A stretch of 64,000 nt of DNA from positions 383-64,382 of the forward strand of contig JAHJCJ010000067.1 of the NCBI GenBank assembly GCA_018812825.1. The letters run 5' to 3'. Below are positions 41,041 to 63,760 of the stretch, one piece after another. The stretch comes from Candidatus Omnitrophota bacterium. Its GTDB lineage: Bacteria; Omnitrophota; Gorgyraeia; Gygaellales; Profunditerraquicolaceae. Both the position numbers and the translations under genes were made by a program. Under the pieces are notes generated by a model that worked only from the letters and a program-made list of their open reading frames with translations, ran no database searches and was not told where the DNA came from. The first letter of the stretch is position 1; each line of letters starts with the position of its first letter.

Positions 41041-42324
41041 ATGAAGCTCCAAAGTCGTAGAATAATGCTGTTTGTCTTAATGGGGATATTATTTTTGGGT
41101 ATTCATTTTGTTTTTGCTGAAATAATTACTCTTAAATCAGGCGGGACTGTAGAAGGGGAGATTATTGAGAAGACGGATAAATACGTAAAAATATATTTAC
41201 ATGGAGTGAAGCTTAAGTATTTTATGGATGAGATTAAGGATATTGATGGGCAGAAGACTGTTTCTTCAGACAGTAATCATTTTCCTCCTATTAATGAATC
41301 CGCGTTATTTGAAGCTGTAAAGAATGTTGATATTCTCAAGGTTAAACAGCTTATTAGTGAAGGTGTAGATGTAAACGTAGTAAATTATTCTGGAGCTACT
41401 CCTTTGGTTTGGGCTATAAACGGATGCCATAAGGATATAGTTGAGCTATTACTTTCTAAGGGAGCAAAAGTCAACACTGTAGATTCTGGTGGTATGACAC
41501 CCCTAATGTGGGCGGCACATAGGTGCAATAGGGATATAATAGAATTACTTCTTTCTAAAGGTGCAGATGTTAAAATGAAGGATAAGAATGGTAAAACAGC
41601 TTGGATTTGGTCGGTAGTAAACCGGAATAAAGATGCTAAAGACGTAGTGGAATTTTTTCTTTCTAAAGACGTGGATGTTAATGCAAAAGACAATTCTGGC
41701 GGAACAGTTTTAATGTGGGCAGCTGGCATGGAAAATAAAGAAATCGTTGAGCTACTTCTTTCTAAAGGTGCAGATGTGAATGCAAGAAATAGCCAAGGTT
41801 TAACAGCGTCAATGTATGCTGGAAAGAATGGATTTAATGAAATAGCGGAGCTTCTTAGGTTAAAGGAAGAACAAGTGCAACCTACAAAAAACTCCGGTAA
41901 AGTTGATTATTATGAAACGCAAAAAACGGTTAAGGCAGATGTTTCTTATTTACCTCCTAGTGGTTGGCTGGAAGGCCGAAATGCTCACAATAGTCCAATT
42001 GTTTATTCTCCTGATGGGAAAGCAACCATATTAAATCTAGTAAGAGGACCAGCGAATATAATTACTTTCCAAAATTCCTTATTACTTTTTAGGCAGAAGG
42101 CAAAGCCAATTTCCGAAGAAAAAATTACCTTTTTAGGTAATCCGTGTTATGTTTTTACTAGCGAAGAAACAAATAGTCGCGGAGGCAAGGTAAAAACCAT
42201 GACATATATGTTTCTTGCAAAAAGTAAGCTCTATACGCTTGTTTATGGTGCTGTGCCAGATTACTTCGATACTGATTATCCATCTTTTAAGGATTTCTTA
42301 AATACTTATTGCATAATGGACTAA
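41041..42324 (+). CDS. Secreted ankyrin-repeat protein with an N-terminal 'LKSGGTVEGEIIEKTDKYVK' module
   Basis: Signal peptide; ~5 ANK repeats ('GATPLVWAINGCHKDIVELLLSKGAKVN', 'GMTPLMWAAHRCNRDIIELLLSKGADV', ...); its N-terminal 40 aa is ~50% identical to the N-terminus of the ORF at 1487. Confidence 0.7.
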   Translation: MKLQSRRIMLFVLMGILFLGIHFVFAEIITLKSGGTVEGEIIEKTDKYVKIYLHGVKLKYFMDEIKDIDGQKTVSSDSNHFPPINESALFEAVKNVDILKVKQLISEGVDVNVVNYSGATPLVWAINGCHKDIVELLLSKGAKVNTVDSGGMTPLMWAAHRCNRDIIELLLSKGADVKMKDKNGKTAWIWSVVNRNKDAKDVVEFFLSKDVDVNAKDNSGGTVLMWAAGMENKEIVELLLSKGADVNARNSQGLTASMYAGKNGFNEIAELLRLKEEQVQPTKNSGKVDYYETQKTVKADVSYLPPSGWLEGRNAHNSPIVYSPDGKATILNLVRGPANIITFQNSLLLFRQKAKPISEEKITFLGNPCYVFTSEETNSRGGKVKTMTYMFLAKSKLYTLVYGAVPDYFDTDYPSFKDFLNTYCIMD

Positions 42325-46076: not shown

Positions 46077-47000
46077 TTGAATATGAAGCGTAATTTTATC
46101 TTCTGTGTTATCCTGGGTTTAATTTTTATAGGAGCCTTGGGGTGTGATAAAATAAAAATCCCTGTTTCTAAAAAAACAGAGGTAGCGGAAGTAAAAGCCG
46201 TGCCGGTGATCCCTCAAGTTAAAGGCGTAGTTATCGCTAAGGTAAATAATATTCCCATTGGTTTGGATGATTTTAACCAGGAGGTTGAAATTTATAATGC
46301 CAATGTTCCAGAAGACAGGCCTGAATTAAAAATTACCACCAGGGAACAGAAGATCAATTACCTAAAAAATGAAGTAGTACGCAGAACCTTGCTTTATCAG
46401 AATGCTCTGGATAAAGGTTTGGACCGAAATGAAGATGTTCTAATGGCGTTAGATAAAACTAAGATGCAGCTTTTAGTTATGGAATTAATTAAGCAGGTTT
46501 CGCAGAAGGTCGATGTTTCTTCTAAAGAGATCGAAGATTATTATAATACATACAAGGAGCAGTTAAAGGAACCAGAAGAGCGTCAGATTAGAGAGATAGT
46601 TTCTTCAAGCGAGCAGGAAGCTAGGGATATATTAATCCAGCTTTTACAAGGAGCGGATTTTGCTACTTTAGCTAGGACTAATTCTAAATCCTCTAGCGCT
46701 AAAGATGGAGGGGATTTGGGGTTTGTTAAGCTAGGCGTAAAATCTTCGCAGTTTAATTCTGTGGCTTTTTCTGATTCTCTAGAAGCTGGTAAGATAAGCA
46801 GTATATTCAAAACTCCCGACGGCTACAGCATAATTAAATTGGAAGGCAAACGCGGAGGTAAGCAAAAGCCGTTATCTGAGATGTGGGATGATATTAAGAC
46901 AGGGCTTGTTTATCTAAAACGGCAGCAGGTTATTGACGAGCTGATCGGAAAACTTTCCCGCGACGCAAAAATAGATATTTATGAAGGAGAGATAAAATAA
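46077..47000 (+). CDS. Secreted parvulin-type peptidyl-prolyl isomerase (PrsA/SurA-like)
   Basis: Signal peptide/lipobox-like 'GALGC'; PpiC domain 'ARTNSKSSSAKDGGDLGFVKLG...FKTPDGYSIIKLEGKR'. Confidence 0.6.
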   Translation: MNMKRNFIFCVILGLIFIGALGCDKIKIPVSKKTEVAEVKAVPVIPQVKGVVIAKVNNIPIGLDDFNQEVEIYNANVPEDRPELKITTREQKINYLKNEVVRRTLLYQNALDKGLDRNEDVLMALDKTKMQLLVMELIKQVSQKVDVSSKEIEDYYNTYKEQLKEPEERQIREIVSSSEQEARDILIQLLQGADFATLARTNSKSSSAKDGGDLGFVKLGVKSSQFNSVAFSDSLEAGKISSIFKTPDGYSIIKLEGKRGGKQKPLSEMWDDIKTGLVYLKRQQVIDELIGKLSRDAKIDIYEGEIK

Positions 47001-47911
47001 TGGCCATAGAGAAGCAGAAGCTTATTTTAATAAGCGGCGTAGTTCTAGGCGTGGTAGCAATTCTGATGACTAAAATGTATCTGGATCAACAACAGCAAGT
47101 GGCTCAGGCGCAGGCAAAAAAAACGCTTGCTAAAATGCAGACCAACCAGACTGTAGTTTTAGTAGCTAAACAGGATATCCCTAGCGGTTCAGTTATTGAA
47201 TCCCGTATGATTGATAGTTCAATTGTTCCCAACCAATTTATTCAACCCCAGGCAGTTACTTCTATAGATAGGGTTTTAGGAATGGTTAGCCTGGCTCTAA
47301 TCTCTAAGGGTGAGCAGATAACTCTTTCTAAGCTTTCTAAATCCCGGAAAGAAGACGGCGGAAGCCTGGCAGGGAATACTCCGGCGGGTAAAAGAGCAAT
47401 CTCTATTGCTGTAGATAGTATTGCTTCTGTATCTGGGATGGTCAGGCCAGGAGATTATGTTGATGTGATTGCTACATTGCAAGTCCCTGCGCAAGGGCCG
47501 GATGGGCAGGTATCAACTCAAATGGCCGTGGTTCCTTTGTTCCAGAATGTTTTAGTTTTGGCAGTAGGCCAGGATACTGGTTTTGTTGGTAGGGCAGAAA
47601 GTCGATATGGGGAAAAAGGAGCTTCTTCTGGAGGGTTAATTACTCTGGCTATAGGGCCTCAAGAGGCAAATCTTATTGCTTTTGTACAAGAACAGGGTAA
47701 AATGCGCCTGACTCTGCGTTCTCCGGCGGATGCCAATGTTGAACCAGTGGTTCCAGCCAGCTGGGAAACCTTATTCCAATATATTATGCCTCAACAGAAA
47801 AGCGTTGAGGAAAGCATTGAGGTTAAAGAAGTTCCGGTAGTTGATGCTACTGCTGAGTACGTAGAAGTTTTTCGCGGGCTAAACAAGGAAAAAGTCTCTC
47901 TTTCAAAATAA
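47000..47911 (+). CDS. cpaB: Flp pilus assembly protein CpaB/RcpC
   Basis: N-terminal TM anchor; SAF-like 'VLVAKQDIPSGSVIESRMI' and the typical CpaB C-terminal beta domain; immediately upstream of the secretin. Confidence 0.7.
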   Translation: MAIEKQKLILISGVVLGVVAILMTKMYLDQQQQVAQAQAKKTLAKMQTNQTVVLVAKQDIPSGSVIESRMIDSSIVPNQFIQPQAVTSIDRVLGMVSLALISKGEQITLSKLSKSRKEDGGSLAGNTPAGKRAISIAVDSIASVSGMVRPGDYVDVIATLQVPAQGPDGQVSTQMAVVPLFQNVLVLAVGQDTGFVGRAESRYGEKGASSGGLITLAIGPQEANLIAFVQEQGKMRLTLRSPADANVEPVVPASWETLFQYIMPQQKSVEESIEVKEVPVVDATAEYVEVFRGLNKEKVSLSK

Positions 47912-47921
47912 AAGGAGAAAA

Positions 47922-49511
47922 ATGAGAAAGTTATTTTTTGGCCTATTCTTTATTGCTAGCTTTATAACCTTTCTGCCTTTTAAGGGATATCTTGCAGATG
48001 ATATCGAAGAAGAGATAAAGATCTATATGGGGCAGACTAAAGTTATTTCTGTGAGTACGCCAAAGAGAGTGGCTGTTGGAAATCCTGCGATTGCCGATGT
48101 AGCTAATATTGGCAAAAGCGAACTTACGGTCGTCCCCAAGGCAGTAGGTAATACCACGCTTATTGTTTGGGATAATTTTGGCGAGCAGGCTTATCGTTTA
48201 AGGGTGTTTGCGGAAGATACTGCCGATCTCAAGCGTCGCATAGACCATATGTTAAAGAAATTAAATTTACCAAATGTTTATACTAGCGCAGAAGATGAGG
48301 AAGGAAAAGTTGCGCTTTTAGGCACGGTTAAGCATGCTGCCGATAGAGAAATAATTGCTACCGCCTTAGGAGCGCTTAAAGGTAAAACCGTTGATTTAAT
48401 AGTAGTAAAAGAAGAGGAATCAGTTATAGAGATTGATGTTCAGGTGATTGAAATTAATAGAGGGTCTCAGGATACACTTGGTTTTACCTGGCCAAGTTCA
48501 ATGACCTTAACCGAAGTTGGTTCTCCTGGTATTGCCGGGACAGCTTGGGGTAAAGTATTTCATGTCGTTAATGAATCCCGTGCAGCCTTTACTTTAAAGC
48601 TGGATGCTTTAATAAAGGAAGGTAAAGCGCGCATTCTCTCTCGGCCAAGGGTTTCTTGCCAGAGTGGTAAAGAAGCTAAGCTTCTTGTTGGAGGAGAGGT
48701 TCCTGTTTTAAGCGGTTCAGTTACCCCGGGTACGAGTGGTGAAACCTCAGTTGGCGCAACTACCGGAGCTTCAGTAGAATATAAAGAGTATGGGATTATT
48801 TTAAATGTTAAGCCTTCGATTGAGGATTCAGGGCGTATTCATCTTAATCTTGACGTATCCGTTAGTGAGGTAGGGGATGTGGTGAGTACTTCTTATGCCC
48901 TTGCATATAAAATGACTAAACGTACAGCTACAACCGAGCTTTTTCTCGATGATGGCCAGACTATGGCTATTGGAGGTTTAATTAAGAAAAAGTCTTCCGA
49001 GGAGTTAACAAGGGTTCCTTGGCTTTCGGATATTCCGGTGTTGGGTTTATTCTTTAGGCAGAGAACTACTTCTCGGGGTTGGAATTCCGATCTTAGCAAG
49101 GCCGATGATACAGAATTATTTATTACTCTTACTCCGCGCGTAATTACTCAAAAGGAGCCGTTGAGAGAATTAAAACCATCAATTTCCGGCACGCCTACGC
49201 TTAACGATGACGATATAAAGGATCCTGTTGTAAGGTACGCTAAAATTATTCAAAGGAAGATTCTCGATAGCCTTACTTATCCTATAGCGGCTAAAGAAGC
49301 AGGTTTTCAGGGTAAGGTAAAATTAAGCCTCAAGCTTTCTGCGCAGGGAGACCTGCTGAATTCAAAAGTAAAGGAACCTTCCAGTTATCGTTTGCTCGAC
49401 GAGAACGCAATAAGGACAGCGCAGAAGATTGTCCCATATCCTCCGTTTCCTCCTGCAATAAAAGAAGCTCAGCTTTGGGTAGATGTCCCTATAATATATC
49501 AATTAGAATAA
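47922..49511 (+). CDS. cpaC: Tad secretin CpaC/RcpA with a fused C-terminal TonB_C domain
   Basis: CpaC N-terminal pilus-formation domain, secretin core ('GGEVPVLSG...EYKEYGIILNVKPSI...MAIGGLIKKK'), then 'YAKIIQRKILDSLTYPIAAKEAGFQGKVKLSLKLSAQGDLLNSKVKEPSSYRLLDENAIRTAQKIVPYPPFPP', which matches the TonB C-terminal domain. Confidence 0.75.
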   Translation: MRKLFFGLFFIASFITFLPFKGYLADDIEEEIKIYMGQTKVISVSTPKRVAVGNPAIADVANIGKSELTVVPKAVGNTTLIVWDNFGEQAYRLRVFAEDTADLKRRIDHMLKKLNLPNVYTSAEDEEGKVALLGTVKHAADREIIATALGALKGKTVDLIVVKEEESVIEIDVQVIEINRGSQDTLGFTWPSSMTLTEVGSPGIAGTAWGKVFHVVNESRAAFTLKLDALIKEGKARILSRPRVSCQSGKEAKLLVGGEVPVLSGSVTPGTSGETSVGATTGASVEYKEYGIILNVKPSIEDSGRIHLNLDVSVSEVGDVVSTSYALAYKMTKRTATTELFLDDGQTMAIGGLIKKKSSEELTRVPWLSDIPVLGLFFRQRTTSRGWNSDLSKADDTELFITLTPRVITQKEPLRELKPSISGTPTLNDDDIKDPVVRYAKIIQRKILDSLTYPIAAKEAGFQGKVKLSLKLSAQGDLLNSKVKEPSSYRLLDENAIRTAQKIVPYPPFPPAIKEAQLWVDVPIIYQLE

Positions 49512-51714: not shown

Positions 51715-52062
51715 ATGAAGATAAAAATAATTAATCTAACCAAGAATCAAGTTTTGGCCGAGGATGTTTTATTGTCAACCAGTTTCTTAAAGAGGCTAAA
51801 AGGGTTATTAGGTTATGAATCTTTTGAAGAAAATCATGCAATGATACTGCGGCCTGCTAATTCCGTGCACACTTTCTTTATGCGTTTTCCGATTGACGTG
51901 CTGTTTGTTGATAGGAATAATATAGTGGTAAAAGCGGTTAGTAATATGGGGCCTTTTAAAATTACCAGAATTTATTTTAAATCCGCTTTTGTTATTGAGT
52001 TGCACGCCGGAATGCTCAACGCAACTCAAACTGCAGAAGGTGACTACTTGCAAATCCAGTAA
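51715..52062 (+). CDS. DUF192-family protein
   Basis: 'EENHAMILRPANSVHTFFMRFPIDVLFVDRNNIVV' matches the DUF192/COG1430 pattern; small, in the Tad locus. Confidence 0.5.
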   Translation: MKIKIINLTKNQVLAEDVLLSTSFLKRLKGLLGYESFEENHAMILRPANSVHTFFMRFPIDVLFVDRNNIVVKAVSNMGPFKITRIYFKSAFVIELHAGMLNATQTAEGDYLQIQ

Positions 52063-52099: not shown

Positions 52100-52597
52100 C
52101 TATCGCTCGAATACATCAAATTGATTTATCAGATGGTCTTGTTTTATCCCGAATCTGCTGTTCCAACTGCACCAACGGTATTCCGCAGGTGATTTTACTA
52201 AATTTGCTCTTGCCGGATTAAATTCTACGTAGGTGATGCAATCTAAAAGGTATTTATCTTCTTGTACCAGCATGTCTTTGTATCTTCCTTGCCATAGGTG
52301 ACCCGCCTTATTATATTTTTCATTAAACCAAATTGTGTATGTTTGATTTAATCCTTGCATAATTTTTTGCAAGTCTTTTCCCAGAAGTACTTTTATTATT
52401 AGATGAATATGATTTGGCATTAAACAATAGCCGTATAATTCAAACCGATATTTATGTTTATAGTGCTTAAGCAAATCTAAATATCTTAGAAAATCGCATT
52501 CATCGATAAAAGTTATTTGTTTTTGATTTCCTCTAGCTATGACATGGTGTATCGAATTATCTATGATCAACCTACTCGGTCTTGGCATATTTATCAC
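52100..52597 (-). mobile_element. IS200/IS605-like Y1 (HUH) transposase of the REP-associated (RAYT) type
   Basis: 'HHVIARGN', HUH motif 'CLMPNHIHLII', 'WQGRYKDMLV' and 'YVEFNPARANLV' are typical of TnpA(REP)/IS200 transposases; flanked by inverted REP-like hairpins. Confidence 0.75.
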
Positions 52598-55078: not shown

Positions 55079-55240
55079 ATGCATACGCCACGGATGCATA
55101 AAGAATTTACCGGCGGACAAAGCCTCGTTGAATATATTGTATTATTCGCCATAGTAGTTATGGTTTCAGTGGCCCTTGCGCAAAGGGCTCCTTCTATTTT
55201 TAGCGGTTATGTTTCCACAGCCACGGGGGCAATGCGATGA
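55079..55240 (+). CDS. Flp-family pilin (53 aa)
   Basis: RBS GGAGAG; 'GGQSLVEYIVLFAIVVMVSV' is the Flp G/xxxxEY processing motif plus a hydrophobic helix; not in the ORF track (<60 aa). Confidence 0.6.
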   Translation: MHTPRMHKEFTGGQSLVEYIVLFAIVVMVSVALAQRAPSIFSGYVSTATGAMR

Positions 55241-55398
55241 AGGGGTTAAGGTTTATAAAAGCTCAAAGCACAGTTGAATATACTATGCTTATAATTATCG
55301 TCGCTGCGGCGTTGGCGGCGATGACAGTATATATAACGCGTTCAATGAACGCTCGCCTTAAACAGGCGCAGGATGAGTTAAATTATTACCGGCCGTAA
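55237..55398 (+). CDS. Flp-family pilin (53 aa)
   Basis: 'KAQSTVEYTMLIIIVAAALAAM'; start overlaps the previous stop (ATGA). Confidence 0.6.
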   Translation: MKGLRFIKAQSTVEYTMLIIIVAAALAAMTVYITRSMNARLKQAQDELNYYRP

Positions 55399-55418
55399 TA
55401 AATTTAGGAGGTGAAAAG

Positions 55419-55586
55419 ATGAAGAGGTTTAGCAAGGCTCAAAGTACGCTGGAGTATGTGATTATTCTAGCAGCTGTGGTTGGCGCTATTATCGCTGTTG
55501 CTGCGGCATTGAAACCAAAGCTGGAGGGCGGTTATGATACGCTGGGCACTACGATGAAGGATAAAGTGGAATCAGTAAGTTTTTAA
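55419..55586 (+). CDS. Flp-family pilin (55 aa)
   Basis: RBS 'aggaggtga'; 'KAQSTLEYVIILAAVVGAIIAVAAA'. Confidence 0.65.
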   Translation: MKRFSKAQSTLEYVIILAAVVGAIIAVAAALKPKLEGGYDTLGTTMKDKVESVSF

Positions 55587-55599
55587 GGAGGTGAAGAGA

Positions 55600-55926
55600 A
55601 TGTTAAGGATATTAAGAAAGGGCCAGAGTACGGCAGAGTACGCCATTGTTATCGGTTTAGTTATTGCCGCGGCTGTTGCTATGCAGATTTATGTAAAGCG
55701 TAGTTTGCAAGGTAAGGTTAAAGATGCGGTGGACTATAATGATCCTGCGGCAAGCGGTATTTTAGGTACAACCACGCAGTATGAGCCTTATTACTCTACT
55801 TCAGCCATGAATGCTACTCGTTCATCTACTGATACGGAAGATACCGCAACCGGTGGTTCGGTCGCCAGGACTACTGTAGATTCTTCATCTAGGACCGGTA
55901 CTCAAAATATTTTAGCAGTGCAGTAG
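55600..55926 (+). CDS. Flp-family pilin with a Thr/Ser-rich C-terminal extension (108 aa)
   Basis: RBS 'aaggaggtgaagaga' then ATG; 'KGQSTAEYAIVIGLVIAAAVAM'; C-terminus rich in T/S. Confidence 0.65.
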   Translation: MLRILRKGQSTAEYAIVIGLVIAAAVAMQIYVKRSLQGKVKDAVDYNDPAASGILGTTTQYEPYYSTSAMNATRSSTDTEDTATGGSVARTTVDSSSRTGTQNILAVQ

Positions 55927-55969
55927 TATCAATAATTATTTTGAAGAAATTTTTAAGGAGGTGAAAGAA

Positions 55970-56275
55970 ATGTTTATGCGTAAAATACGCGGGCAGAGCA
56001 CGTTGGAATATGTTATTTTAGTGGGTTTTGTAGTGGCAGCGTTAATTGCCATGGGTATTTATATGAAACGAGGTTATGAGGGAAGGATTAAGGAATCTAC
56101 CGATCAGATTGGCCAGCAGTATTCTGCCGGAAATACTACTTCAAGCTATACGACTATATCTAATGTCGCTCAGTCTGAAACTGTAAGTTCTGGAGGGGTT
56201 ACGCTAACCACTATTACTCAGAATCAGCAAGATAAAACCGGTAGCGAGAGCGTAGCAGCTTTGAGTGCGCAATAA
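55970..56275 (+). CDS. Flp-family pilin with an extended C-terminus (101 aa)
   Basis: RBS 'aaggaggtgaaagaa'; 'RGQSTLEYVILVGFVVAALIAM'. Confidence 0.65.
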   Translation: MFMRKIRGQSTLEYVILVGFVVAALIAMGIYMKRGYEGRIKESTDQIGQQYSAGNTTSSYTTISNVAQSETVSSGGVTLTTITQNQQDKTGSESVAALSAQ

Positions 56276-56289
56276 TTAAGGTAATTAAA

Positions 56290-56844
56290 ATGCGTCGGGC
56301 GCAGACCAATTTGGAGTATTCTTATTTAATCGGCATAGTAGCAGTGGCTATTATCGCCATATTAGCATATATGAGCCGCGGGTTCCAGGGGAACCTGCGC
56401 ACGCTTTCTGAGCAGGTCGAAGCTGGTGCTTATGCTCCAGGAAACACCACGGTAAACAATGCAGAGACCAAGCGTACGCAATCTACGGTGGTTTCCACGA
56501 GTACCACCACAACTACCTATGGAAACGGGCAGGCGGAAAACGAAGAGATGCATACCAATAGTGAAGAGCAGAAATCATTACGGGCTGAATTGGTGGATCT
56601 TAGAAAAGCCGCGGAAACGGCAACCGGTAGTGCGCTGGAGATTCTAAATCAGCAGATAAGTGATAAGACCAAAGACTTGCAAGATTTGATCGATGAATAT
56701 AAAGCTTTATCGGAAGTATGGGAAGCGCGGACAATTACTCCAAACAGTACTAGTGTTACAAGCAGCACAGTTGAAACCGGTACTCAGACTGTGGCTAAAC
56801 AGGTAAATGAAGCGCTGGGGAATCTATCAAATGACAGCTGGTAA
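56290..56844 (+). CDS. Flp/TadE-like pilin with a Thr-rich linker and a coiled-coil C-terminal domain (184 aa)
   Basis: 'RAQTNLEYSYLIGIVAVAIIAILAYM' then 'TSTTTTTYG' and heptad-like 'LRAELVDLRKAAE...LQDLIDEYKAL'. Confidence 0.55.
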   Translation: MRRAQTNLEYSYLIGIVAVAIIAILAYMSRGFQGNLRTLSEQVEAGAYAPGNTTVNNAETKRTQSTVVSTSTTTTTYGNGQAENEEMHTNSEEQKSLRAELVDLRKAAETATGSALEILNQQISDKTKDLQDLIDEYKALSEVWEARTITPNSTSVTSSTVETGTQTVAKQVNEALGNLSNDSW

Positions 56845-57172
56845 AGCAGGTAAGGTATCTTTTAAAAAAGGCCAGAATCTTACGGAAGCCGTGGTAATTA
56901 TCGGCATTGTGGGGTTAGTTTTTGTTGGAATGCAGGTTTATGTTAAGCGCGGTGTACAGGGTAAAGTTAAAGATTTAACAGATAATATGATAGGTACGGA
57001 GCAGGAAGCTTATCAGGAAGATACTTCAGGGCTTGAAATAAATGAATCTGCTTCTACGTTTACTTCCAGCTCGACGATAGCGTCGAATGATTCTCTGGGA
57101 GGGGCAAAGAGTTTAATTGCTAACGAAGCTACAACAGTTACCTATAGTTCCGAGTCCACAGATGCTTATTAG
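56831..57172 (+). CDS. Flp-family pilin-like protein (113 aa)
   Basis: 'KKGQNLTEAVVIIGIVGLVFVGMQVYV'; ATG at 56831 in frame with the track ORF 56807. Confidence 0.5.
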   Translation: MTAGKAGKVSFKKGQNLTEAVVIIGIVGLVFVGMQVYVKRGVQGKVKDLTDNMIGTEQEAYQEDTSGLEINESASTFTSSSTIASNDSLGGAKSLIANEATTVTYSSESTDAY

Positions 57173-57227
57173 AAACGTTGCCTTTGTGAGTATTTGAATA
57201 AGGTTTTTTAAAAGTGAGGCGGGCAAG

Positions 57228-57857
57228 ATGTTAAGTAATAAAAACGCCCAGGCAGCCACAGAATTCGCGATCATAGTCTCATTGGTAATTGTGGCTTTTG
57301 CTTTTTTGATTAATTATAGCGTGAAGCTTAATAACCAGCAATCTTGCATTCAGCAAGCCTTCCGCTTGGCATTAAGTGAAGCAAGAGAGGCGGATAACTC
57401 TGCTTCTTATACTAAAGTTGTTTTTAGGCGCATGCCGAATGTTTCCAGCCCGATGGAATTAGGGCAATTGCAGTCTGTTAGCAGTAGTTCCAATGTACTG
57501 TGGGCAGATGGCAAGAGCAGGAATGAGGATGAAACGCCAAAGGATGGCGTATCAAAATACCAGCTTAATGAAGCTGAGGCAATAGATATACCCAAGCCCG
57601 AGTATGAATATTTGGAGGGTCAAACCAAGGTAAGCATGAATACCTTTACCAATACCGTAGACTCTACCACTACTTTTACAAAACAAGAATCTGCCTCTGG
57701 AGATATCACTACTGCTAAGACACTTAATGCTACGGATACCTTGTCCGCGAGCGTTGACATTGACGGCACAGCATATCCTTTTGAGCATTATTTGGGCGCT
57801 AATGGAAAGTATTATGACCAATCCACAAGTTTGAGCAGGTCAAGGAGTATGGAATAA
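57228..57857 (+). CDS. TadE-like pseudopilin (209 aa)
   Basis: 'NKNAQAATEFAIIVSLVIVAFAFL' is the TadE/TadG-type N-terminus. Confidence 0.55.
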   Translation: MLSNKNAQAATEFAIIVSLVIVAFAFLINYSVKLNNQQSCIQQAFRLALSEAREADNSASYTKVVFRRMPNVSSPMELGQLQSVSSSSNVLWADGKSRNEDETPKDGVSKYQLNEAEAIDIPKPEYEYLEGQTKVSMNTFTNTVDSTTTFTKQESASGDITTAKTLNATDTLSASVDIDGTAYPFEHYLGANGKYYDQSTSLSRSRSME

Positions 57858-58735
57858 TGCATAAAGCACAAGCAACGCTGGAATCTACATTATTTTTTAT
57901 TATAATAGCAGCATTATCTCTGGGTTTGATTAGTTTATGGAAGGGCTCCAGCGATACTATTGTTAGTCGCCAGAAAGATTTTAATGCCAGCCGCGTAGCT
58001 GCCGGCTCAGTTCCGCCAGGGACTTCTTCCTCGGGAAACATACCCCTTGAGTTTACGTATAATACTATAGATGCTTACCTGGATTATATTGACGGATCAG
58101 CTTATGATCTAATGTCATTAGAACAGATAAATGATAATCTGGAAAATATAAATCAGGCCATAGCGGGTACCCAGGCAAATATTGCTCAACTGACGCAGAT
58201 AAGAGATACCTGGAAGAGTTTTTTTGATGAGGCTCAAGCGCAAGAGGTAAACGCGCAACAGCAAATCGATAATTTGCAGGCCCAGCTGGATGAAAAACAA
58301 AGAGAGCTGGATAGAGGTGAATGTGATTGGTGGGATGATGACGGTTGCGGAAGCCTTATTGCAGAAATAAATTCGCTCCAGGAACAGATAGAGATGGCTA
58401 TAAACGGATATTATACCATAGAGACTGGGTGGGGTGATGATTGGGAGATTACTTATGATTACTCTAATGCGCAATGGATGTCTGCATTAGGTACGAGGGA
58501 GGCATGGTCAAATGATTACTGGATGTATCAACAGTATGGGGTTTCACCAGGAAATAATAAATATGGGCTATACAACGATTACACTCCCGGGTTGCTTGAT
58601 TGGCAGTCAAGAAAGGATGTTGCCCTATCGCAACTGAATGATGCTCAGTCTAATTTAGATGTTATGGAAAATACTCTGGATAAACTTACAGCTATGCAGG
58701 ATAAGCTTCTGGAAGCCCAGGAAAAAAAATCTTAA
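57857..58735 (+). CDS. TadE/TadF-like pseudopilin with a Gln-rich coiled-coil region (292 aa)
   Basis: 'HKAQATLESTLFFIIIAALSLGLISLW', then 'QINDNLENINQAIAGTQANIAQLTQIRD...QQQIDNLQAQLDEKQRELD'. Confidence 0.5.
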   Translation: MHKAQATLESTLFFIIIAALSLGLISLWKGSSDTIVSRQKDFNASRVAAGSVPPGTSSSGNIPLEFTYNTIDAYLDYIDGSAYDLMSLEQINDNLENINQAIAGTQANIAQLTQIRDTWKSFFDEAQAQEVNAQQQIDNLQAQLDEKQRELDRGECDWWDDDGCGSLIAEINSLQEQIEMAINGYYTIETGWGDDWEITYDYSNAQWMSALGTREAWSNDYWMYQQYGVSPGNNKYGLYNDYTPGLLDWQSRKDVALSQLNDAQSNLDVMENTLDKLTAMQDKLLEAQEKKS

Positions 58736-58829
58736 ATCCTAATAAGGAGGTAACCTGTTTTTCTCCTGGTTCGCTAAAAATAAACAATTTAAGAAAAAGA
58801 GTAGTTTATCCGGCCAGGTCGCTCCTCTT

Positions 58830-60212
58830 TTGCTGGTAGTATTGGTTATTTTGTTAGTTGCTGCGATTGCAACGATTAATATCGGCAGGGTTTCTTTAGA
58901 TAAAACCTGTTCGGCTAATGCCGCGGATGCCGGTTCTCTTGCCGCGGCTTCTGTGTGGGCTTCTGCTTTTAATGTGCTCACCGAAATAAACAAAGATCAG
59001 ATAAAAACCTGGTTTGACCTGAATTATTACACTTACGGGCAGCTTTATTTTGAGGCAGATAGTTATATAAATGAGGGGATAAATTATGCGCTTGCTGCCA
59101 GCGCAGCTGCAGTAGCATCTCTTGCAGTTGCGAGCGTGCCGTTTCTTTGTTATGAGATTTGGTATGAAGGTTTAGCCGCTGCTGCTCTTGATGGGACTGC
59201 TGCCTACCTGTGTTTTGAGGCATCTCAATCAGTTGCAGCCTTTTCTATTACTATTCAATTTATGCAATCGCTCACGGATTCTTTTTATGAGCAGCAATGG
59301 GAAAACTATTGTGACGCCAGGGAATATATGGAGGATGCATATACTAATGCCTACGAAACAGGATTAAACTATGCCTTTTCCAATAGTTGTATATCCTCTA
59401 AGCTTTCAGATGCGCAGAATGATGCCTTTAGCGCCTGGATGGATGGAAAAGGCCCTTCTACTGATGGGACCTATAGCTGGGAGGACAAGCTTTCTCAGCC
59501 GCATACAGTTACCGCTACCTTGGATTTACCAGATATAACCTCCTATGAGCTGCAGCATACCGAAAGCAGCTATTCGCAAATCAGTGGTTTGTTAGACGGG
59601 CTTATCAGCCGTGCGCAGACAATCTCCGGAGTATTAAACAGCACAGGTGTTTCATTAGGGGCTACTGCAGCTTTGTTTCTTGTTACCTTTGGAATGAGTG
59701 TCACAACTTACATCTTTTGGTGTTGTTGTGATATCCCTTGTGCTTATTGCGTTTGTTGTGCGTGTTGTGCGGCGTATGTGGCATGGTGTGGTGCAACTAT
59801 AGCTGTCTATCAAGGCGTGTATTTGGATCAAAGTTATATAGTTTCTGTGCTTGCAGCTTTTATTGCATTTGTAGGAGCGATGTCCCTGTATTCGCTAAAG
59901 TCTGATAATGATGCGGCATTCGCAGGCTGGGCTCCTGATCCTGATAACATATATAGCAGCACAAGTTGTGCGGATGCTGAAGACCTGATGATTGTTCAGA
60001 TCAGCGAAGTAATCTTACCTAACGACGTAAATTGGCCTGCCAGTGACTGGACTACTGTTTGCTCTACAACCCAGCAGCATCCCGGCACAAGTTCTGGTAT
60101 TATGCCGACGAGCTATCCAATTATAAATAGCAGCAGCAGGGCTAAATTTGATGGCGGTGATGTGGGGGCATTTGAGGATACTTATGATCCCAGCATAGTG
60201 TGGGTAAACTAA
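58830..60212 (+). CDS. TadG-like large pseudopilin/tip-associated protein with an internal Cys cluster (460 aa)
   Basis: N-terminal hydrophobic 'LVVLVILLVAAIATINIGRVSL'; internal 'FWCCCDIPCAYCVCCACCAAYVAWCG' (11 Cys in ~25 aa); the start codon is non-ATG in the track. Confidence 0.5.
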   Translation: MLVVLVILLVAAIATINIGRVSLDKTCSANAADAGSLAAASVWASAFNVLTEINKDQIKTWFDLNYYTYGQLYFEADSYINEGINYALAASAAAVASLAVASVPFLCYEIWYEGLAAAALDGTAAYLCFEASQSVAAFSITIQFMQSLTDSFYEQQWENYCDAREYMEDAYTNAYETGLNYAFSNSCISSKLSDAQNDAFSAWMDGKGPSTDGTYSWEDKLSQPHTVTATLDLPDITSYELQHTESSYSQISGLLDGLISRAQTISGVLNSTGVSLGATAALFLVTFGMSVTTYIFWCCCDIPCAYCVCCACCAAYVAWCGATIAVYQGVYLDQSYIVSVLAAFIAFVGAMSLYSLKSDNDAAFAGWAPDPDNIYSSTSCADAEDLMIVQISEVILPNDVNWPASDWTTVCSTTQQHPGTSSGIMPTSYPIINSSSRAKFDGGDVGAFEDTYDPSIVWVN

Positions 60213-60285
60213 GACACCCGGCGCAGGCACCTGGCGCTTATTTGAATTGCGCCGGTGTTGTCTTCGTAGATAAGGAGGCAGAATA

Positions 60286-61083
60286 ATGTTTAGAAACTTG
60301 AGTAGAATAATCTTGTGCACAATCTTATTTTTCATCTGCGTTTCATTTAACCGTTTAATATTCAGCGCTGAGCCAGACATACCTTTGCCGGAAGGTGCTT
60401 TAAAAACCATGGAAAAGAGCATGGATGTCGGGCCTTCTAAAAGCACCATTCAATTTTATGAAACCTCTCTTAATAATAATAAGATAGCCTCTTTTTATAG
60501 AAAAGAGATGTTGCGTCTTGGTTGGCGTGAACAGAGAACCGGGTTTTTCTTAAAAGATAACTATCTGGCGGTTATCGTCTCTAACCCGCGTAAGAGTAAG
60601 GGCGAGAAGACGCAATTTTCTATCACCATAAGCAGGATTCCCGGTAAAGAAGAAATATTAGCCGGACGCAAGGATACGCCGGATAAGTTAAGCTTTATGC
60701 CGGTTTATCCTAAATCAGCGCAGGTCTTTCTCTGGGATATGCCCACTGGAGTCTCTGCTTCATATGAGACCGACAGCAGTATTAAAGAACTGGTTTTCTT
60801 TTATAAATCTGGTATGCTTAATTATGGCTGGAGCCTTGATAAAGAGGCGCCGATCACAACAGAGACAGCTGATTGTCCTGAGTGCCAGAAGGCCAAGCAG
60901 AATTTGCCCAAAGACAGCAGCTTGCCTGATATGAAAGTTACCTCTAGCAGGGGCAATTTGTTATTCAGTAGGCAAAACGGAGAACGCTGCACGATAAAGT
61001 TGTATCAAAACATTAGTGATATACAAGAAGTAAATAAAACAACAATTTTGGTTACCTACAATGCGAATAAAAAGATTAATTAA
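60286..61083 (+). CDS. Secreted hypothetical protein in the Tad locus
   Basis: Signal peptide 'MFRNLSRIILCTILFFICVSFNRLIFSA'; preceded by a GC-rich hairpin leader that resembles the pstS leader. Confidence 0.4.
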   Translation: MFRNLSRIILCTILFFICVSFNRLIFSAEPDIPLPEGALKTMEKSMDVGPSKSTIQFYETSLNNNKIASFYRKEMLRLGWREQRTGFFLKDNYLAVIVSNPRKSKGEKTQFSITISRIPGKEEILAGRKDTPDKLSFMPVYPKSAQVFLWDMPTGVSASYETDSSIKELVFFYKSGMLNYGWSLDKEAPITTETADCPECQKAKQNLPKDSSLPDMKVTSSRGNLLFSRQNGERCTIKLYQNISDIQEVNKTTILVTYNANKKIN

Positions 61084-61252
61084 CAAAGCCCAATCTATTA
61101 TAGAGTATGTAGCGGTGATTATAGTAATTATTTCATGTTTTATCGCCATGGGAGCGTATTATAAAAGAAATTTGCAGGAACGGTTCCGGCAGGCAGGGGA
61201 TGTTTTAGGCGGCGGGGAACAATATACCCCCGCAGTAGTTATCGCTCCATAA
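61061..61252 (+). CDS. Flp-family pilin (63 aa)
   Basis: 'KAQSIIEYVAVIIVIISCFIAMGAYY'. Confidence 0.6.
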   Translation: MRIKRLINKAQSIIEYVAVIIVIISCFIAMGAYYKRNLQERFRQAGDVLGGGEQYTPAVVIAP

Positions 61253-61270: not shown

Positions 61271-62116
61271 ATGATCTTATTGCTTGGCATTGTGATTTTG
61301 TGCTCAATTATTTTGTTATCTTTGAGTATCTTACCTTTTTTCATGCAAAAAATACAATTCTGGCAGCAGAAGCAGGAGGTTAAAGTTGCTAAAGAAATGG
61401 ATAAGATGTTTTATGATAAGAGCCCCAAGATCATTGTCACGCTTTATTATATCCTTCCTATTATTTTTGGACTTAGCGGGATAATTTTCCTACACTCGCC
61501 TTTTTTTATGATTCTCGGGGCGCTTATCGGAGTGACCGTCCCAAACCTTATTCTTAAGATGCGCTTTAAACGCAGGATCCAGAAATTCGATAACCAGCTT
61601 TTAGATGCTATTAATATGCTCACCAGTTGTTTAAAAGGCGGTTTAAGCTTGCTACAGGGGATTGAAGTATTAGTAGAAGAGATGCCTGCGCCAATTAGCC
61701 AGGAGTTAGGTTTGGTGGTTAGGGAGAATAAGATGGGCATTTCTTTGGAGGAGAGCCTTGTCCGGTTGAATAAGAGGATGAATCTTGAGGAGCTTGGCTT
61801 GATGGTTAACGCACTCTTAATTGCCCGCGAGACAGGCGGTGAGTTAACGAAGGTATTTAGCCGCTTGAGTGTGACTATAAGGGATAATCATAAACTAAAA
61901 GAAAATATCAAGACGCTTACTTTACAGGGAAGAATGCAAGGTATAATTATGTCATTTTTGCCGATTGTATTTGTTGTCTGGGTCCTTTCGGTTGATAAAC
62001 ATCATTTTGATATTATGATGAACAATGATTTAGGTAGGATGCTTTTGGTGGGAGCGGTAGTGTTGCAGATTTGCGGCATGCTTCTTATCAAGATGTTCAG
62101 CGTAATTAAAATATAA
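61271..62116 (+). CDS. tadB: Tad pilus inner-membrane platform protein TadB (T2SS-F domain)
   Basis: N-terminal TM, cytoplasmic T2SSF-like domain 'QLLDAINMLTSCLKGGLSLLQGIE', C-terminal TM helices. Confidence 0.75.
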   Translation: MILLLGIVILCSIILLSLSILPFFMQKIQFWQQKQEVKVAKEMDKMFYDKSPKIIVTLYYILPIIFGLSGIIFLHSPFFMILGALIGVTVPNLILKMRFKRRIQKFDNQLLDAINMLTSCLKGGLSLLQGIEVLVEEMPAPISQELGLVVRENKMGISLEESLVRLNKRMNLEELGLMVNALLIARETGGELTKVFSRLSVTIRDNHKLKENIKTLTLQGRMQGIIMSFLPIVFVVWVLSVDKHHFDIMMNNDLGRMLLVGAVVLQICGMLLIKMFSVIKI

Positions 62117-62117
62117 T

Positions 62118-62981
62118 ATGGATATTTTTATCTACCTTCTAATTATTTCTGCGGTTGTTTTAATTTTCTGGGCAATAAGTTCTCCCCGCCAGTCCGCAAT
62201 TATGCACTTAAGGGAAAACAAGCTCATGGCGGAGAAAGTTAATAAGCCGCCCTTTGATTTATCCAGGATCCTTCCCACGCGGGATATCCTTGAAAGGACC
62301 GGGCTATTAGTTAAAATCAAGAGTAAGGTTGATGCCGCGCATGTGCATATTTCTCCGGTGGGATTTTTTAATTTAAAGATAATTATTATATTCTTTTTTG
62401 CAGTTTTTAGCATTATCGCTACCGGAAAAATTAACCCCATTTTTATTCTCATTTCTTTCATAATAGGATATATTATTCCGGAAATTTATTTAAAACAAAA
62501 GCTTGCCAAACGTAAAAACCTAATCTCACGCCGGCTTCCGGAAACAGTGGATCTGCTCGGGCTTTGCATTGAGGCCGGCCTGGATTTTGTAAGCGCGGTT
62601 AACTGGGTGATTGCCAAAACCCCGGGTACGGCGATGACCGAGGAATTGGCATTTGTGGCTGAAGAGATTAAATGGGGAAAACCGCGTATTCAGGCTTTAA
62701 AAGATATGTCGCGTAGGCTGGATATTCCCGAAATGACCTCGTTTGTGCAGACCATTATTCAGGCAGATCGTATGGGGACTCCGGTTGCCGAGGCTTTTAC
62801 TATAATTTCTGAAGATGCCCGTGCTCAAAGGTTCCACCGCGGGCAAAGGATCGCCTTACAGGCGCCTATCAAAATACTCCTTCCCCTTATATTCTTCATT
62901 ATGCCCGTAATCGGTATTGTAATTGGAGGGCCAATCTTGCTTCAATTTATGCAGGGTGGCCTTATCAGCGGCTTCAAATAA
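62118..62981 (+). CDS. tadC: Tad pilus inner-membrane platform protein TadC (T2SS-F domain)
   Basis: 'RLPETVDLLGLCIEAGLDFVSAVNWV' T2SSF domain flanked by TM helices; directly follows tadB. Confidence 0.75.
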   Translation: MDIFIYLLIISAVVLIFWAISSPRQSAIMHLRENKLMAEKVNKPPFDLSRILPTRDILERTGLLVKIKSKVDAAHVHISPVGFFNLKIIIIFFFAVFSIIATGKINPIFILISFIIGYIIPEIYLKQKLAKRKNLISRRLPETVDLLGLCIEAGLDFVSAVNWVIAKTPGTAMTEELAFVAEEIKWGKPRIQALKDMSRRLDIPEMTSFVQTIIQADRMGTPVAEAFTIISEDARAQRFHRGQRIALQAPIKILLPLIFFIMPVIGIVIGGPILLQFMQGGLISGFK

Positions 62982-63449
62982 TTGGGCGTGAATCCTATTT
63001 AATGAGATTAAGCATTTTTTGGGCTTACTCGGAAGCTTTATAGCGGCATTACCCCGGTAACTTTATTAATATATTCTTTGAAGTGCCCATCTAAAGAAAT
63101 CCACCTTTTTGAGCAATATAGCATAGTTGTCCTCATTCATTTTTTCCAATCAATTCTTTAATGAATTAGATGTAATCAGCCAAGGCTACTAAACCATGGT
63201 CAAGGTAGTAGCTGGCTATCGATTCTGGATGTCCTATGATTGTAACTTGACCATTGGTAAGGCTCGGGAATCTTTACTAAGCCTGCCCTTACAGGTTACT
63301 GAAGCAATAGATAATATATCTAGAGTTTCAGGTTTTCCCAAGCAAGATTTATAGCCCCAGTGGAATGGGGCCTATCCGCGTCCGTGAAGAATATGTCGAT
63401 TACGTAAAGTAAGCAAGCAGCGTATCAAATCGCTTTTACTCTTTGCCTA

Positions 63450-63760
63450 CCTCAAACGCTATTAAAAGATACAACCTCATGCTACAGGCTAAAAATTAGA
63501 GTTATATTTTTATGACCTAGAGTGTTCGCGCAACCAAACCGTAATAATTCTCAAAGAGTTTAAAAAACTATCTGACCAAAATGCAATCTTAGAGTGCAAT
63601 ATACATTATTTACGCTCTATTCCCGGCATAGGTTTTATCATTGCCATAACCATTCTGGCAAGCATTGGAGATATAGAAGAGTTGCATGGTCTCAAGAAAT
63701 GGCTGCCTTTATGGGATTAGCGCCCTCTGAATACTCAACTTGATAACAGATCGCAAGAAG
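63450..63760 (+). pseudogene. Decayed IS110-family transposase C-terminal fragment (frameshifted)
   Basis: Translations 'LRSIPGIGFIIAITILASIGDIEEL' and, in another frame, 'MAAFMGLAPSEYS' match the conserved IS110 'IPGIG..TA..LLAEIGD' and 'AYAGLAPSEYQSG' motifs; no intact ORF in the last 1 kb. Confidence 0.5.

Follow-up and report, generated by a model that had tools for sequence, protein, structure and literature searches.

Why does one pilus locus carry eleven genes for pilin-like proteins? The question is raised by a 64,000-nucleotide stretch of a Candidatus Omnitrophota genome (contig JAHJCJ010000067.1, positions 383 to 64,382; hereafter the window), in which a tight adherence (Tad) locus holds eleven open reading frames (ORFs) on the plus strand between positions 55079 and 61252, numbered here pil1 to pil11 in gene order. 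Usual tad loci hold one to three flp genes together with tadE, tadF and tadG. A preliminary description of this DNA had remarked on the excess, which our analysis bears out, and had offered two kinds of explanation: a diversification of pilins, with antigenic or functional variation, and a modular filament with decorated subunits. The evidence presented here favors the second, and we estimate at about 60% the probability that the eleven class-III-signal proteins are non-redundant parts of one fiber, assembled by a Tad (type IVc) machine conserved in Omnitrophota. Comparison with related loci further shows that the array is the standard pilin module of a phylum-wide Omnitrophota Tad variant and no specialty of one genome.

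Results

All eleven ORFs were recovered at the positions first reported, and their sizes as called span 53 to 460 residues, an upper limit that shifts to about 485 with the revised start of pil10 described below. Each protein begins with a short, positively charged leader ending in Gly (pil1, pil4, pil5, pil7 and pil10) or Ala (pil2, pil3, pil6, pil8, pil9 and pil11) at position -1. In ten of them (55079-58735 and 61061-61252) the basic leader of 4-14 residues is followed by Gln at +1, Glu at +5 and usually Tyr or Phe at +6, in the pattern Q-(S/A/T/N)-x-x-E-(Y/F/A/S), and then by some 20 strongly hydrophobic residues (Kyte-Doolittle maximum over 19 residues, 2.2-2.8). The remaining protein, the TadG-like pil10, shares the pilin-like leader and has a hydrophobic segment, but carries Leu at +5 and a conserved Pro at +4. 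A detector was set to accept ORFs with [GAS]-Q-x3-E and a hydrophobic 18-mer free of charged residues, provided that a start codon lay upstream and the leader held a basic residue; run over all six frames of the window, it returned exactly these ten ORFs and no further pilin-signature ORF.

The window matches contig JAHJFP010000014.1 in the assembly GCA_018824865.1, a metagenome-assembled genome of a Candidatus Omnitrophica bacterium. Scanning an alignment of pil5 against one genome per GTDB species yielded 80 related loci, labelled Omnitrophota almost throughout. Each has pilin-like ORFs; full-length loci have between 7 and 15 of them, and those truncated at a contig end have fewer. Across the 80 loci, 679 pilin-signature ORFs lie on the locus strand versus none on the opposite strand, and because of this split the pilin signature of the array is beyond chance. 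That the small ORFs might be artefacts was rejected on their conservation, the strand bias and the presence of Shine-Dalgarno (SD) sites, which are strong (AAGGAGGTGA) upstream of pil3, pil4 and pil5 and likewise strong before pil10; pil6 has a weak site and pil11 has none. The 679 sequences give a predicted processing site of (K/R)(G/A)↓Q, where the arrow marks the expected cut, within the longer consensus (K/R)(K/R)(G/A)↓Q-S-T-L-E-Y-(A/V)-I-L-I. Position -2 is Lys or Arg in 83% of them, position -1 is Gly in 60% and Ala in 39%, and the leader has a median of 8 residues. The archaeal class III signal has [KR][GA] before the cut, and the consensus resembles it at the sequence level, a likeness that fits the weak matches of three window proteins to the Class_IIIsignal family PF04021 (pil3 19.0 bits, pil5 17.7 and pil1 14.5, below the cutoff of 23.7).

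Family assignment by profile is correspondingly loose. Only pil10 exceeds a curated cutoff, that of PF13400. The best sub-threshold Pfam matches of the others are Class_IIIsignal (pil1, pil3, pil5), DUF4244 (pil2, pil4), TadE (pil8) and DUF7287 (pil6); none of the ten pilins matches Flp_Fap (PF04964) even at E<=1, and an NCBIfam scan of the ten small proteins gave spurious weak matches only. The label 'Flp' fits pil1, pil2, pil3 and pil11 by other marks, namely the motif G/A↓xxxxEY, a mature length of about 45-60 residues without a globular domain, and a place in a tad locus; pil4 to pil7 have the motif plus extra C-terminal domains. Some orthologues are labelled 'Flp pilus assembly pilin Flp' by JGI. 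The name can stand in a loose sense for the four smallest proteins, and not as membership of the Flp_Fap family.

The intergenic gaps in the array are 0-55 nt or the genes overlap, as where the start of pil2 overlaps the stop codon of pil1 (ATGA). Because of these gaps, the array reads as one transcription unit that continues into tadB and tadC. A promoter and terminator scan gave counts close to the shuffled expectation.

The paralogues recur in a fixed order. When each detected ORF of the related loci was assigned to its best-matching window paralogue, the order was 1-2-3-4-5-(6)-7-8-9, then the TadG-like gene (10), and then 11 just before tadB; the pil11 orthogroup occupies this place in 34 loci, 2.5-3 kb past the main array. 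Within the window the paralogues are 20-50% identical to each other, mostly in the N-terminal helix. A repeat search revealed neither long repeats nor silent cassettes or invertible segments; repeats in the array are limited to a shared SD box and a 52-nt stretch encoding a conserved motif. Recent duplication and cassette variation were rejected on the repeat search and the paralogue identities, and the paralogues are instead old, ordered orthogroups. Across loci the small pilins show a median identity of 50-55%, like the machinery, with pil3, pil4 and pil5 as conserved as the machinery itself, and pil10 is the most divergent protein of the locus at 33%.

These observations bear directly on the suggestion of antigenic or phase variation, in which interchangeable major pilins would be switched to evade recognition. 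Tandem pilin paralogues with surface-exposed, Ser/Thr-rich tails are what such a system might display. However, these paralogues are ancient and keep their order across the phylum, pil5 remains 59-83% identical across species over all 101 residues (best 120 of 267 homologues), and the silent cassettes, long repeats and invertible segments of a switching system are missing from the array. Since the paralogues are old and hold fixed positions without cassettes, they more plausibly have non-redundant roles in one assembly; we regard antigenic variation as very improbable and a recent diversification as unsupported.

Three classes can be told apart among the eleven proteins: minimal Flp-type pilins (pil1, pil2, pil3 and pil11; 53-63 residues), mid-sized pilins (pil4 to pil7; 101-184 residues) and a TadE/F/G-like trio (pil8 to pil10). 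The mid-sized proteins share a post-helix motif, Y-x-(K/S)-R-x-x-Q-G-x-x-K, which appears in looser form in pil2 and pil11. The C-terminal extensions described earlier as Thr/Ser-rich, coiled-coil or Cys-rich are all present: the C-terminal parts of pil4 to pil7 contain 26-36% Ser plus Thr, pil9 gives weak matches to coiled-coil-type profiles, and pil10 has 17 Cys. Among the mid-sized proteins, pil6 is nearest to pil5 (33% over 102 residues) and pil7 to pil4 (36% over 107 residues), and the 52-nt stretch of pil7 is 81% identical to that of pil4.

Three subunits stand out as candidates for the bulk of a shaft. The SD site of pil3 is perfect (AGGAGGTGA, -16.1 kcal/mol) and that of pil4 reaches -18.0 kcal/mol; across the orthogroups, median SD strength is -11.5 to -12.8 kcal/mol for pil3, pil4 and pil5 and -3 to -8 kcal/mol for the others. 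Homologues of pil3 number 196, the best 120 of them 62-82% identical. Some carry PF04021, which the precomputed annotation assigns to a minority of pil3 orthologues, or source names such as 'class III signal peptide-containing protein' or 'Flp'. The pil4 orthogroup is present in 76 loci and is often re-duplicated jointly with pil5, the pair having been copied as a unit in six of the related loci. The named homologues of pil5, among the best 120 of 267, are nearly all from Omnitrophota. An AlphaFold2 model of pil5 built with 28 orthologues predicts a helix at residues 11-50 followed by a long beta-hairpin at 56-95, with moderate confidence (predicted local distance difference test, pLDDT, 68.6). 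A Foldseek search of this model against PDB found nothing at E<=0.001, and the pil5 family profile matched no PDB sequence at E<=10. Among 1.84 billion cluster representatives (50% clustering), the pil5-type family has 3,454 members at E<=1e-3 and 1,046 at E<=1e-10; the few that bear names are from Omnitrophota. Because they combine the strongest translation signals with the best conservation, pil3 and/or the pil4-pil5 pair (about 100 residues each, with an alpha-1 helix and a Ser/Thr-rich beta-hairpin) could make up the shaft, with pil1, pil2, pil6, pil7 and pil11 potentially serving as low-abundance adapter or priming pilins.

The same three strong SD sites, on three different subunits, could also be taken to mean that a single machine builds at least two filaments, each with its own major pilin (a thin fiber of pil3 and a thicker one of pil4 and pil5, say). 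The re-duplication of pil4 and pil5 as a unit in several lineages would suit this arrangement, and in archaea one ATPase/TadC module can work with several sets of pilins (PMC4858521). Against it stand the single co-directional array with its tiny or overlapping gaps, an internal promoter and terminator pattern that does not rise above background, and the presence of only one TadE/F/G-like priming set. We consider a division into several filaments quite unlikely.

The trio at the end of the main array resembles the minor pilins of other Tad systems. pil8 scores 15.1 bits against TadE (PF07811), under the cutoff of 22.9, with orthologues reaching 18.3; pil9 orthologues are mostly about 77 residues long and reach 21.4 bits, the window protein having a lineage-specific coiled-coil extension. 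Both genes lie directly upstream of the TadG-like gene, as in the canonical tadE-tadF-tadG order. As called from a TTG at 58830 (58830-60212, 460 residues), pil10 matches the TadE/G-like Pfam family 'Tad' (PF13400) at 23.4 bits against a cutoff of 22.3, a score obtained from a truncated start. Its true N-terminus lies 25 codons upstream, at 58755; the frame between is open and conserved, and orthologues begin (M/L)FFSW(F/Y)..N(K/R)..FKK....SG↓Q(V/I)xP(F/L)LL. The corresponding start codon is TTG in 13 loci, ATG in five and GTG in one, each with an SD site upstream; in the window it is CTG, right after AAGGAGGT. Public annotation of pil10 begins at the downstream TTG, and the signal-like leader is thereby lost. 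PF13400 is found in 32 of 38 pil10 homologues, some of which NCBI names 'pilus assembly protein TadG-related'. First subunits of type IV filaments, such as GspK, typically do not have Glu5, and a role for pil10 as first subunit would fit its N-terminus.

The AlphaFold2 model of pil10 has a pLDDT of 87. Residues ~318-345 (window 59700-59800) form a hydrophobic Cys cluster, FWCCCDIPCAYCVCCACCAAYVAWCG, at the point where a long predicted helical hairpin turns, and the CC..CC..C pattern occurs in most pil10 orthologues. A disulfide knot, a metal site and a membrane-inserting tip are possibilities for this element.

The machinery around the array (Table 1) is conserved as well. The conserved order is peptidyl-prolyl isomerase (PPIase), RcpC, secretin::TonB_C, TadZ::TadA, DUF192, the 734-residue protein, pilins, TadB and TadC, and by tblastn it is kept in 34 of the 35 related loci that were fetched at full length, the set to which all counts out of 35 refer. 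The secretin ends in a TonB_C domain (residues 451-528), for which contact with peptidoglycan or the envelope is a possibility; in 47 of 56 related loci one high-scoring pair covers both parts of the fusion. The fusion of the ParA/MinD-like TadZ domain to the CpaF/TadA-type ATPase is conserved in 55 of 61 related loci. Its ATPase part scores 335.8 bits against TIGR03819 (TadA family), under that model's cutoff of 373, as compared with 51.6 for GspE (51-62 across the GspE models) and 48.5 for PilB. TadB and TadC are each about 285 residues long with a single T2SSF domain, and the locus has neither a GspE-type ATPase nor a single two-domain GspF. Since the CpaB equivalog is above its cutoff, the ATPase is far closer to the TadA family than to GspE, and the platform consists of two single-domain T2SSF proteins, the machine is, as judged from its profiles, of Tad (type IVc) and not of type II secretion type. 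The DUF192 gene suggests an uncharacterized accessory component of the Omnitrophota Tad variant, since it directly follows the ATPase gene in 34 of the 35 full loci.

What follows the locus in relatives raises a further alternative. In 26 of the 35 full-length loci a long ORF runs off the fetched region after the locus, and five of seven such ORFs that were scanned have an N-proximal Peptidase_C39 domain, named as a feature of the Omnitrophota giant genes (West-Roberts et al., bioRxiv 10.1101/2023.11.21.568195); the giant proteins are described as having many transmembrane regions. A type II secretion-like piston, in which a short periplasmic pseudopilus drives the giant protein, or another cargo, out through the secretin without a long fiber being formed, would account for these C39-bearing neighbors, and type II logic would equally allow for one abundant pilin accompanied by several minor ones (pseudopilins as in GspG-K). 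However, the ATPase is TadA/VirB11-like by the scores given above, the platform consists of separate TadB and TadC proteins, the locus also encodes RcpC/CpaB and a TadZ domain, the scanned locus proteins include no GspC/L/M-type match, and giant proteins with many transmembrane regions would be poor type II cargo. We judge the piston to be unlikely. In the window, the position after tadC is taken by frameshifted, decayed fragments of an IS110-family transposase (63190-63750; e.g. ..IPGIGFIIAITILASIGDIEEL.., ..MGLAPSEYST), unlike the related loci, of which most full-length ones have a C39-bearing long ORF next.

The preliminary description had noted the lack of a prepilin peptidase gene, and this holds beyond the window. 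No membrane ORF of the window has a GxGD[x][K/R] motif, and Peptidase_A24 matched neither the multi-transmembrane ORFs outside the tad locus nor the scanned locus proteins, both of which were compared with Pfam. No A24-like membrane ORF occurs within ~10 kb of the 80 related loci, so that a linked TadV/CpaA was found neither here nor there. Processing after (K/R)(G/A) probably falls to an A24 peptidase whose gene lies elsewhere in the genome, and this enzyme is probably a shared PilD, as in Bdellovibrio.

Table 1. Coordinates and supporting evidence for the genes of the Omnitrophota Tad locus in the window (arrow, predicted cut site).
Feature	Coordinates	Strand	Evidence and remarks
PPIC-type peptidyl-prolyl isomerase, first conserved gene of the locus	46077..47000	+	Pfam Rotamase 58.7 bits; 32/35 full loci
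RcpC/CpaB	47000..47911	+	Pfam RcpC 85.6 bits; NCBIfam TIGR03177 pilus_cpaB 157.7 bits, cutoff 71
Secretin (RcpA/CpaC-like) with C-terminal TonB_C	47922..49511	+	Secretin 140, T2SS-T3SS_pil_N 57.7, TonB_C 56.9 bits
TadZ::TadA fusion, 719 aa	49513..51672	+	AAA_31/CbiA/ParA residues 2-240; T2SSE 365-644
DUF192 protein	51715..52062	+	Pfam DUF192 60.9 bits
Y1-type (IS200/RAYT-like) transposase homologue	52100..52597	-	Pfam Y1_Tnp; between DUF192 and 734-aa gene
Conserved protein, 734 aa	52780..54984	+	No Pfam/NCBIfam match; immediately upstream of pilins in 34/35 full loci
pil1, minimal Flp-type pilin, 53 aa	55079..55240	+	Signal ..TGG↓QSLVEY; weak Class_IIIsignal, E 0.034; orthogroup in 27 loci
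pil2, small pilin, 53 aa	55237..55398	+	Signal ..IKA↓QSTVEY; post-helix motif Y-x-(K/T)R
pil3, minimal Flp-type pilin, 55 aa	55419..55586	+	Signal ..SKA↓QSTLEY; candidate abundant subunit
pil4, 108-aa pilin	55600..55926	+	Signal ..RKG↓QSTAEY; motif YVKRSLQGKVKD; Ser/Thr-rich tail; candidate abundant subunit
pil5, 101-aa pilin	55970..56275	+	Signal ..IRG↓QSTLEY; most conserved subunit
pil6, 184-aa pilin	56290..56844	+	Signal MRRA↓QTNLEY; Ser/Thr-rich region and coiled-coil extension
pil7, 113-aa pilin	56831..57172	+	Signal ..KKG↓QNLTEA; motif YVKRGVQGKVKD
pil8, TadE-like minor pilin, 209 aa	57228..57857	+	Signal ..KNA↓QAATEF; place upstream of pil9 and pil10 conserved
pil9, TadF-position minor pilin, 292 aa	57857..58735	+	Signal MHKA↓QATLES
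pil10, TadG-like large minor pilin, ~485 aa	58755..60212	+	Signal ..LSG↓QVAPLLL without Glu5; Cys-rich hydrophobic helical hairpin
Secreted protein, 265 aa, Sec-type signal	60286..61083	+	No Pfam/NCBIfam match; 18/35 full loci
pil11, 63-aa pilin	61061..61252	+	Signal ..NKA↓QSIIEY; motif YYKRNLQERF; just before tadB
TadB-like platform protein	61271..62116	+	One T2SSF domain, 67.9 bits; 34/35 full loci
TadC-like platform protein	62118..62981	+	One T2SSF domain, 53.6 bits; 32/35 full loci

Discussion

RcpC, the secretin::TonB_C protein, TadZ::TadA, TadB and TadC are the envelope machine encoded with the pilins in one operon-like unit, and we propose that it assembles the shaft from pil3 and/or pil4 and pil5. 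The TadE/F/G-like trio might prime assembly and sit at the tip, with pil10 as its fastest-evolving member. The fiber would most likely mediate contact with host or prey cells beside the giant surface protein whose gene comes immediately after the locus in relatives. The assignment of the trio to the tip and of Flp-like pilins to adapter roles matches the model for the Myxococcus xanthus Kil pilus, a Tad pilus whose tip complexes consist of TadE/F/G-like trios, with small Flp-like pilins serving as adapters (PMC12075869). A bolder version, in which pil4 and pil5 would alternate in a heteropolymeric shaft sheathed by Ser/Thr-rich beta-hairpins and the Cys-rich hairpin of pil10 would insert into the host or prey envelope, strikes us as improbable. 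If it were true, the locus and the neighboring giant protein would constitute a contact-dependent attack device of ultra-small bacteria.

Several points weigh against the single-fiber model or its parts. None of the ten small window proteins passes a curated Pfam or NCBIfam cutoff, and the TadE scores of pil8 and pil9 orthologues (16.4-21.4 bits) all fall under 22.9. The predicted structure of pil5 is of moderate confidence and matches no solved pilin. The shaft assignment uses SD strength, which is a proxy for abundance only, and pil10, with several hydrophobic helices, could stay in the membrane rather than reach the tip. Bacterial PilD enzymes cleave poorly at Ala -1, and because six of the eleven proteins have Ala and not Gly there, the processing enzyme is uncertain. 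Finally, a giant-gene homologue is absent after tadC in the window, whose contig ends shortly beyond.

The architecture can be compared with several known systems. Like the canonical Tad loci (Aggregatibacter flp-tad, Caulobacter cpa), this locus encodes a TadA-type ATPase, a split TadB/TadC platform, RcpC/CpaB, an RcpA-type secretin and TadZ, along with small Flp-type pilins with G/A↓xxxxEY and TadE/F/G-like proteins. It differs from them in having no linked TadV, in the fusion of TadZ to TadA and of the secretin to TonB_C, in the lack of a Flp_Fap match and in its short leaders (median 8 residues) ending in (K/R)(G/A)↓Q. Kil also has a large repertoire, with one major and 14 minor pilins, and its linked peptidase is not responsible for every pilin (PMC12075869); in contrast to the single trio and the extra small and mid-sized pilins in fixed order seen here, its pilins are spread over several clusters and provide four alternative tips. 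Archaeal class III pilins (PF04021/UPF0333; Methanococcus Epd) share the (K/R)(G/A)↓Q..E signal and short leaders, and archaeal loci hold at least five minor pilins (PMC4858521). Unlike archaea, the bacterial host here is diderm and has a secretin and RcpC, the window proteins all fall below the PF04021 cutoff, and we found no archaeal-type peptidase or other archaeal component.

Another close parallel is the Tad system of Bdellovibrio bacteriovorus, which has a TadZ-TadA hybrid, described as atypical, and several flp genes with TadE/F/G; its tad loci lack TadV, and PilD processes Flp1 (bioRxiv 10.64898/2026.07.08.737194). It acts in prey attachment and invasion (bioRxiv 10.64898/2026.07.08.737194; Avidan et al. 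2017, PMC5430801). Whereas the Bdellovibrio tad genes are dispersed over several loci, with flp1 to flp4 named, the eleven genes here stand in one compact array that includes the mid-sized pil4 to pil7. The combination of a TadZ-TadA fusion with the lack of a dedicated peptidase is thereby extended to a second phylum, and because Bdellovibrio and Omnitrophota share it, it suggests that Tad machines have a distinct branch of 'predator-type'.

The uncultivated and mostly ultra-small Omnitrophota are suspected to be predators or parasites. As to how they attach to hosts or attack them, the chief clues in their genomes come from the Tad locus and the giant genes beside it. That such a locus exists is already known: West-Roberts et al. 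described it in 2023 upstream of the giant genes, with gspD/E/F-like genes, rcpC, a Rotamase_2 PPIase that is counted in the conserved locus, and "many small genes" with class III signal peptides (bioRxiv 10.1101/2023.11.21.568195). A 2026 preprint repeats the association of locus and giant gene, and Seymour et al. (2023) found Tad complexes across Omnitrophota whose TadB/C group phylogenetically with Bdellovibrionales (PMC10066038). A pilin array of this kind is the norm for Omnitrophota Tad loci. In the searchable literature on the locus the pilins are not dissected, and the present analysis adds the order of their orthogroups, a consensus for their signal, candidates for the major and tip subunits, the pil4/pil5 family and the Cys-rich TadG-like protein. 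The 'many small genes' become a parts list, a fixed set of 10-15 pilins with candidate shaft and tip subunits, and a large pilin family without a curated profile, of 3,454 clusters at 50% identity, is exposed.

Other genes of the locus deserve mention. The 734-residue protein starts with a helix-turn-helix-like region, continues as a long Glu/Lys-rich coiled coil and ends in a domain of about 430 residues. The gene for the 265-residue secreted protein sits between the TadG-like gene and pil11, and its stop overlaps the start of pil11. The Y1 transposase homologue occurs at 50-84% identity in the same place and orientation in at least nine diverged related loci, with extra copies after tadC in others; it has the look of a gene that was kept, and perhaps domesticated, rather than of a chance insertion. 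The window also encodes an ankyrin-repeat protein of 427 residues (41041-42324; Ank_2, 190 bits), whose gene lies some 4 kb upstream of the locus. Such proteins are unusual in free-living bacteria and are often tied to host interaction.

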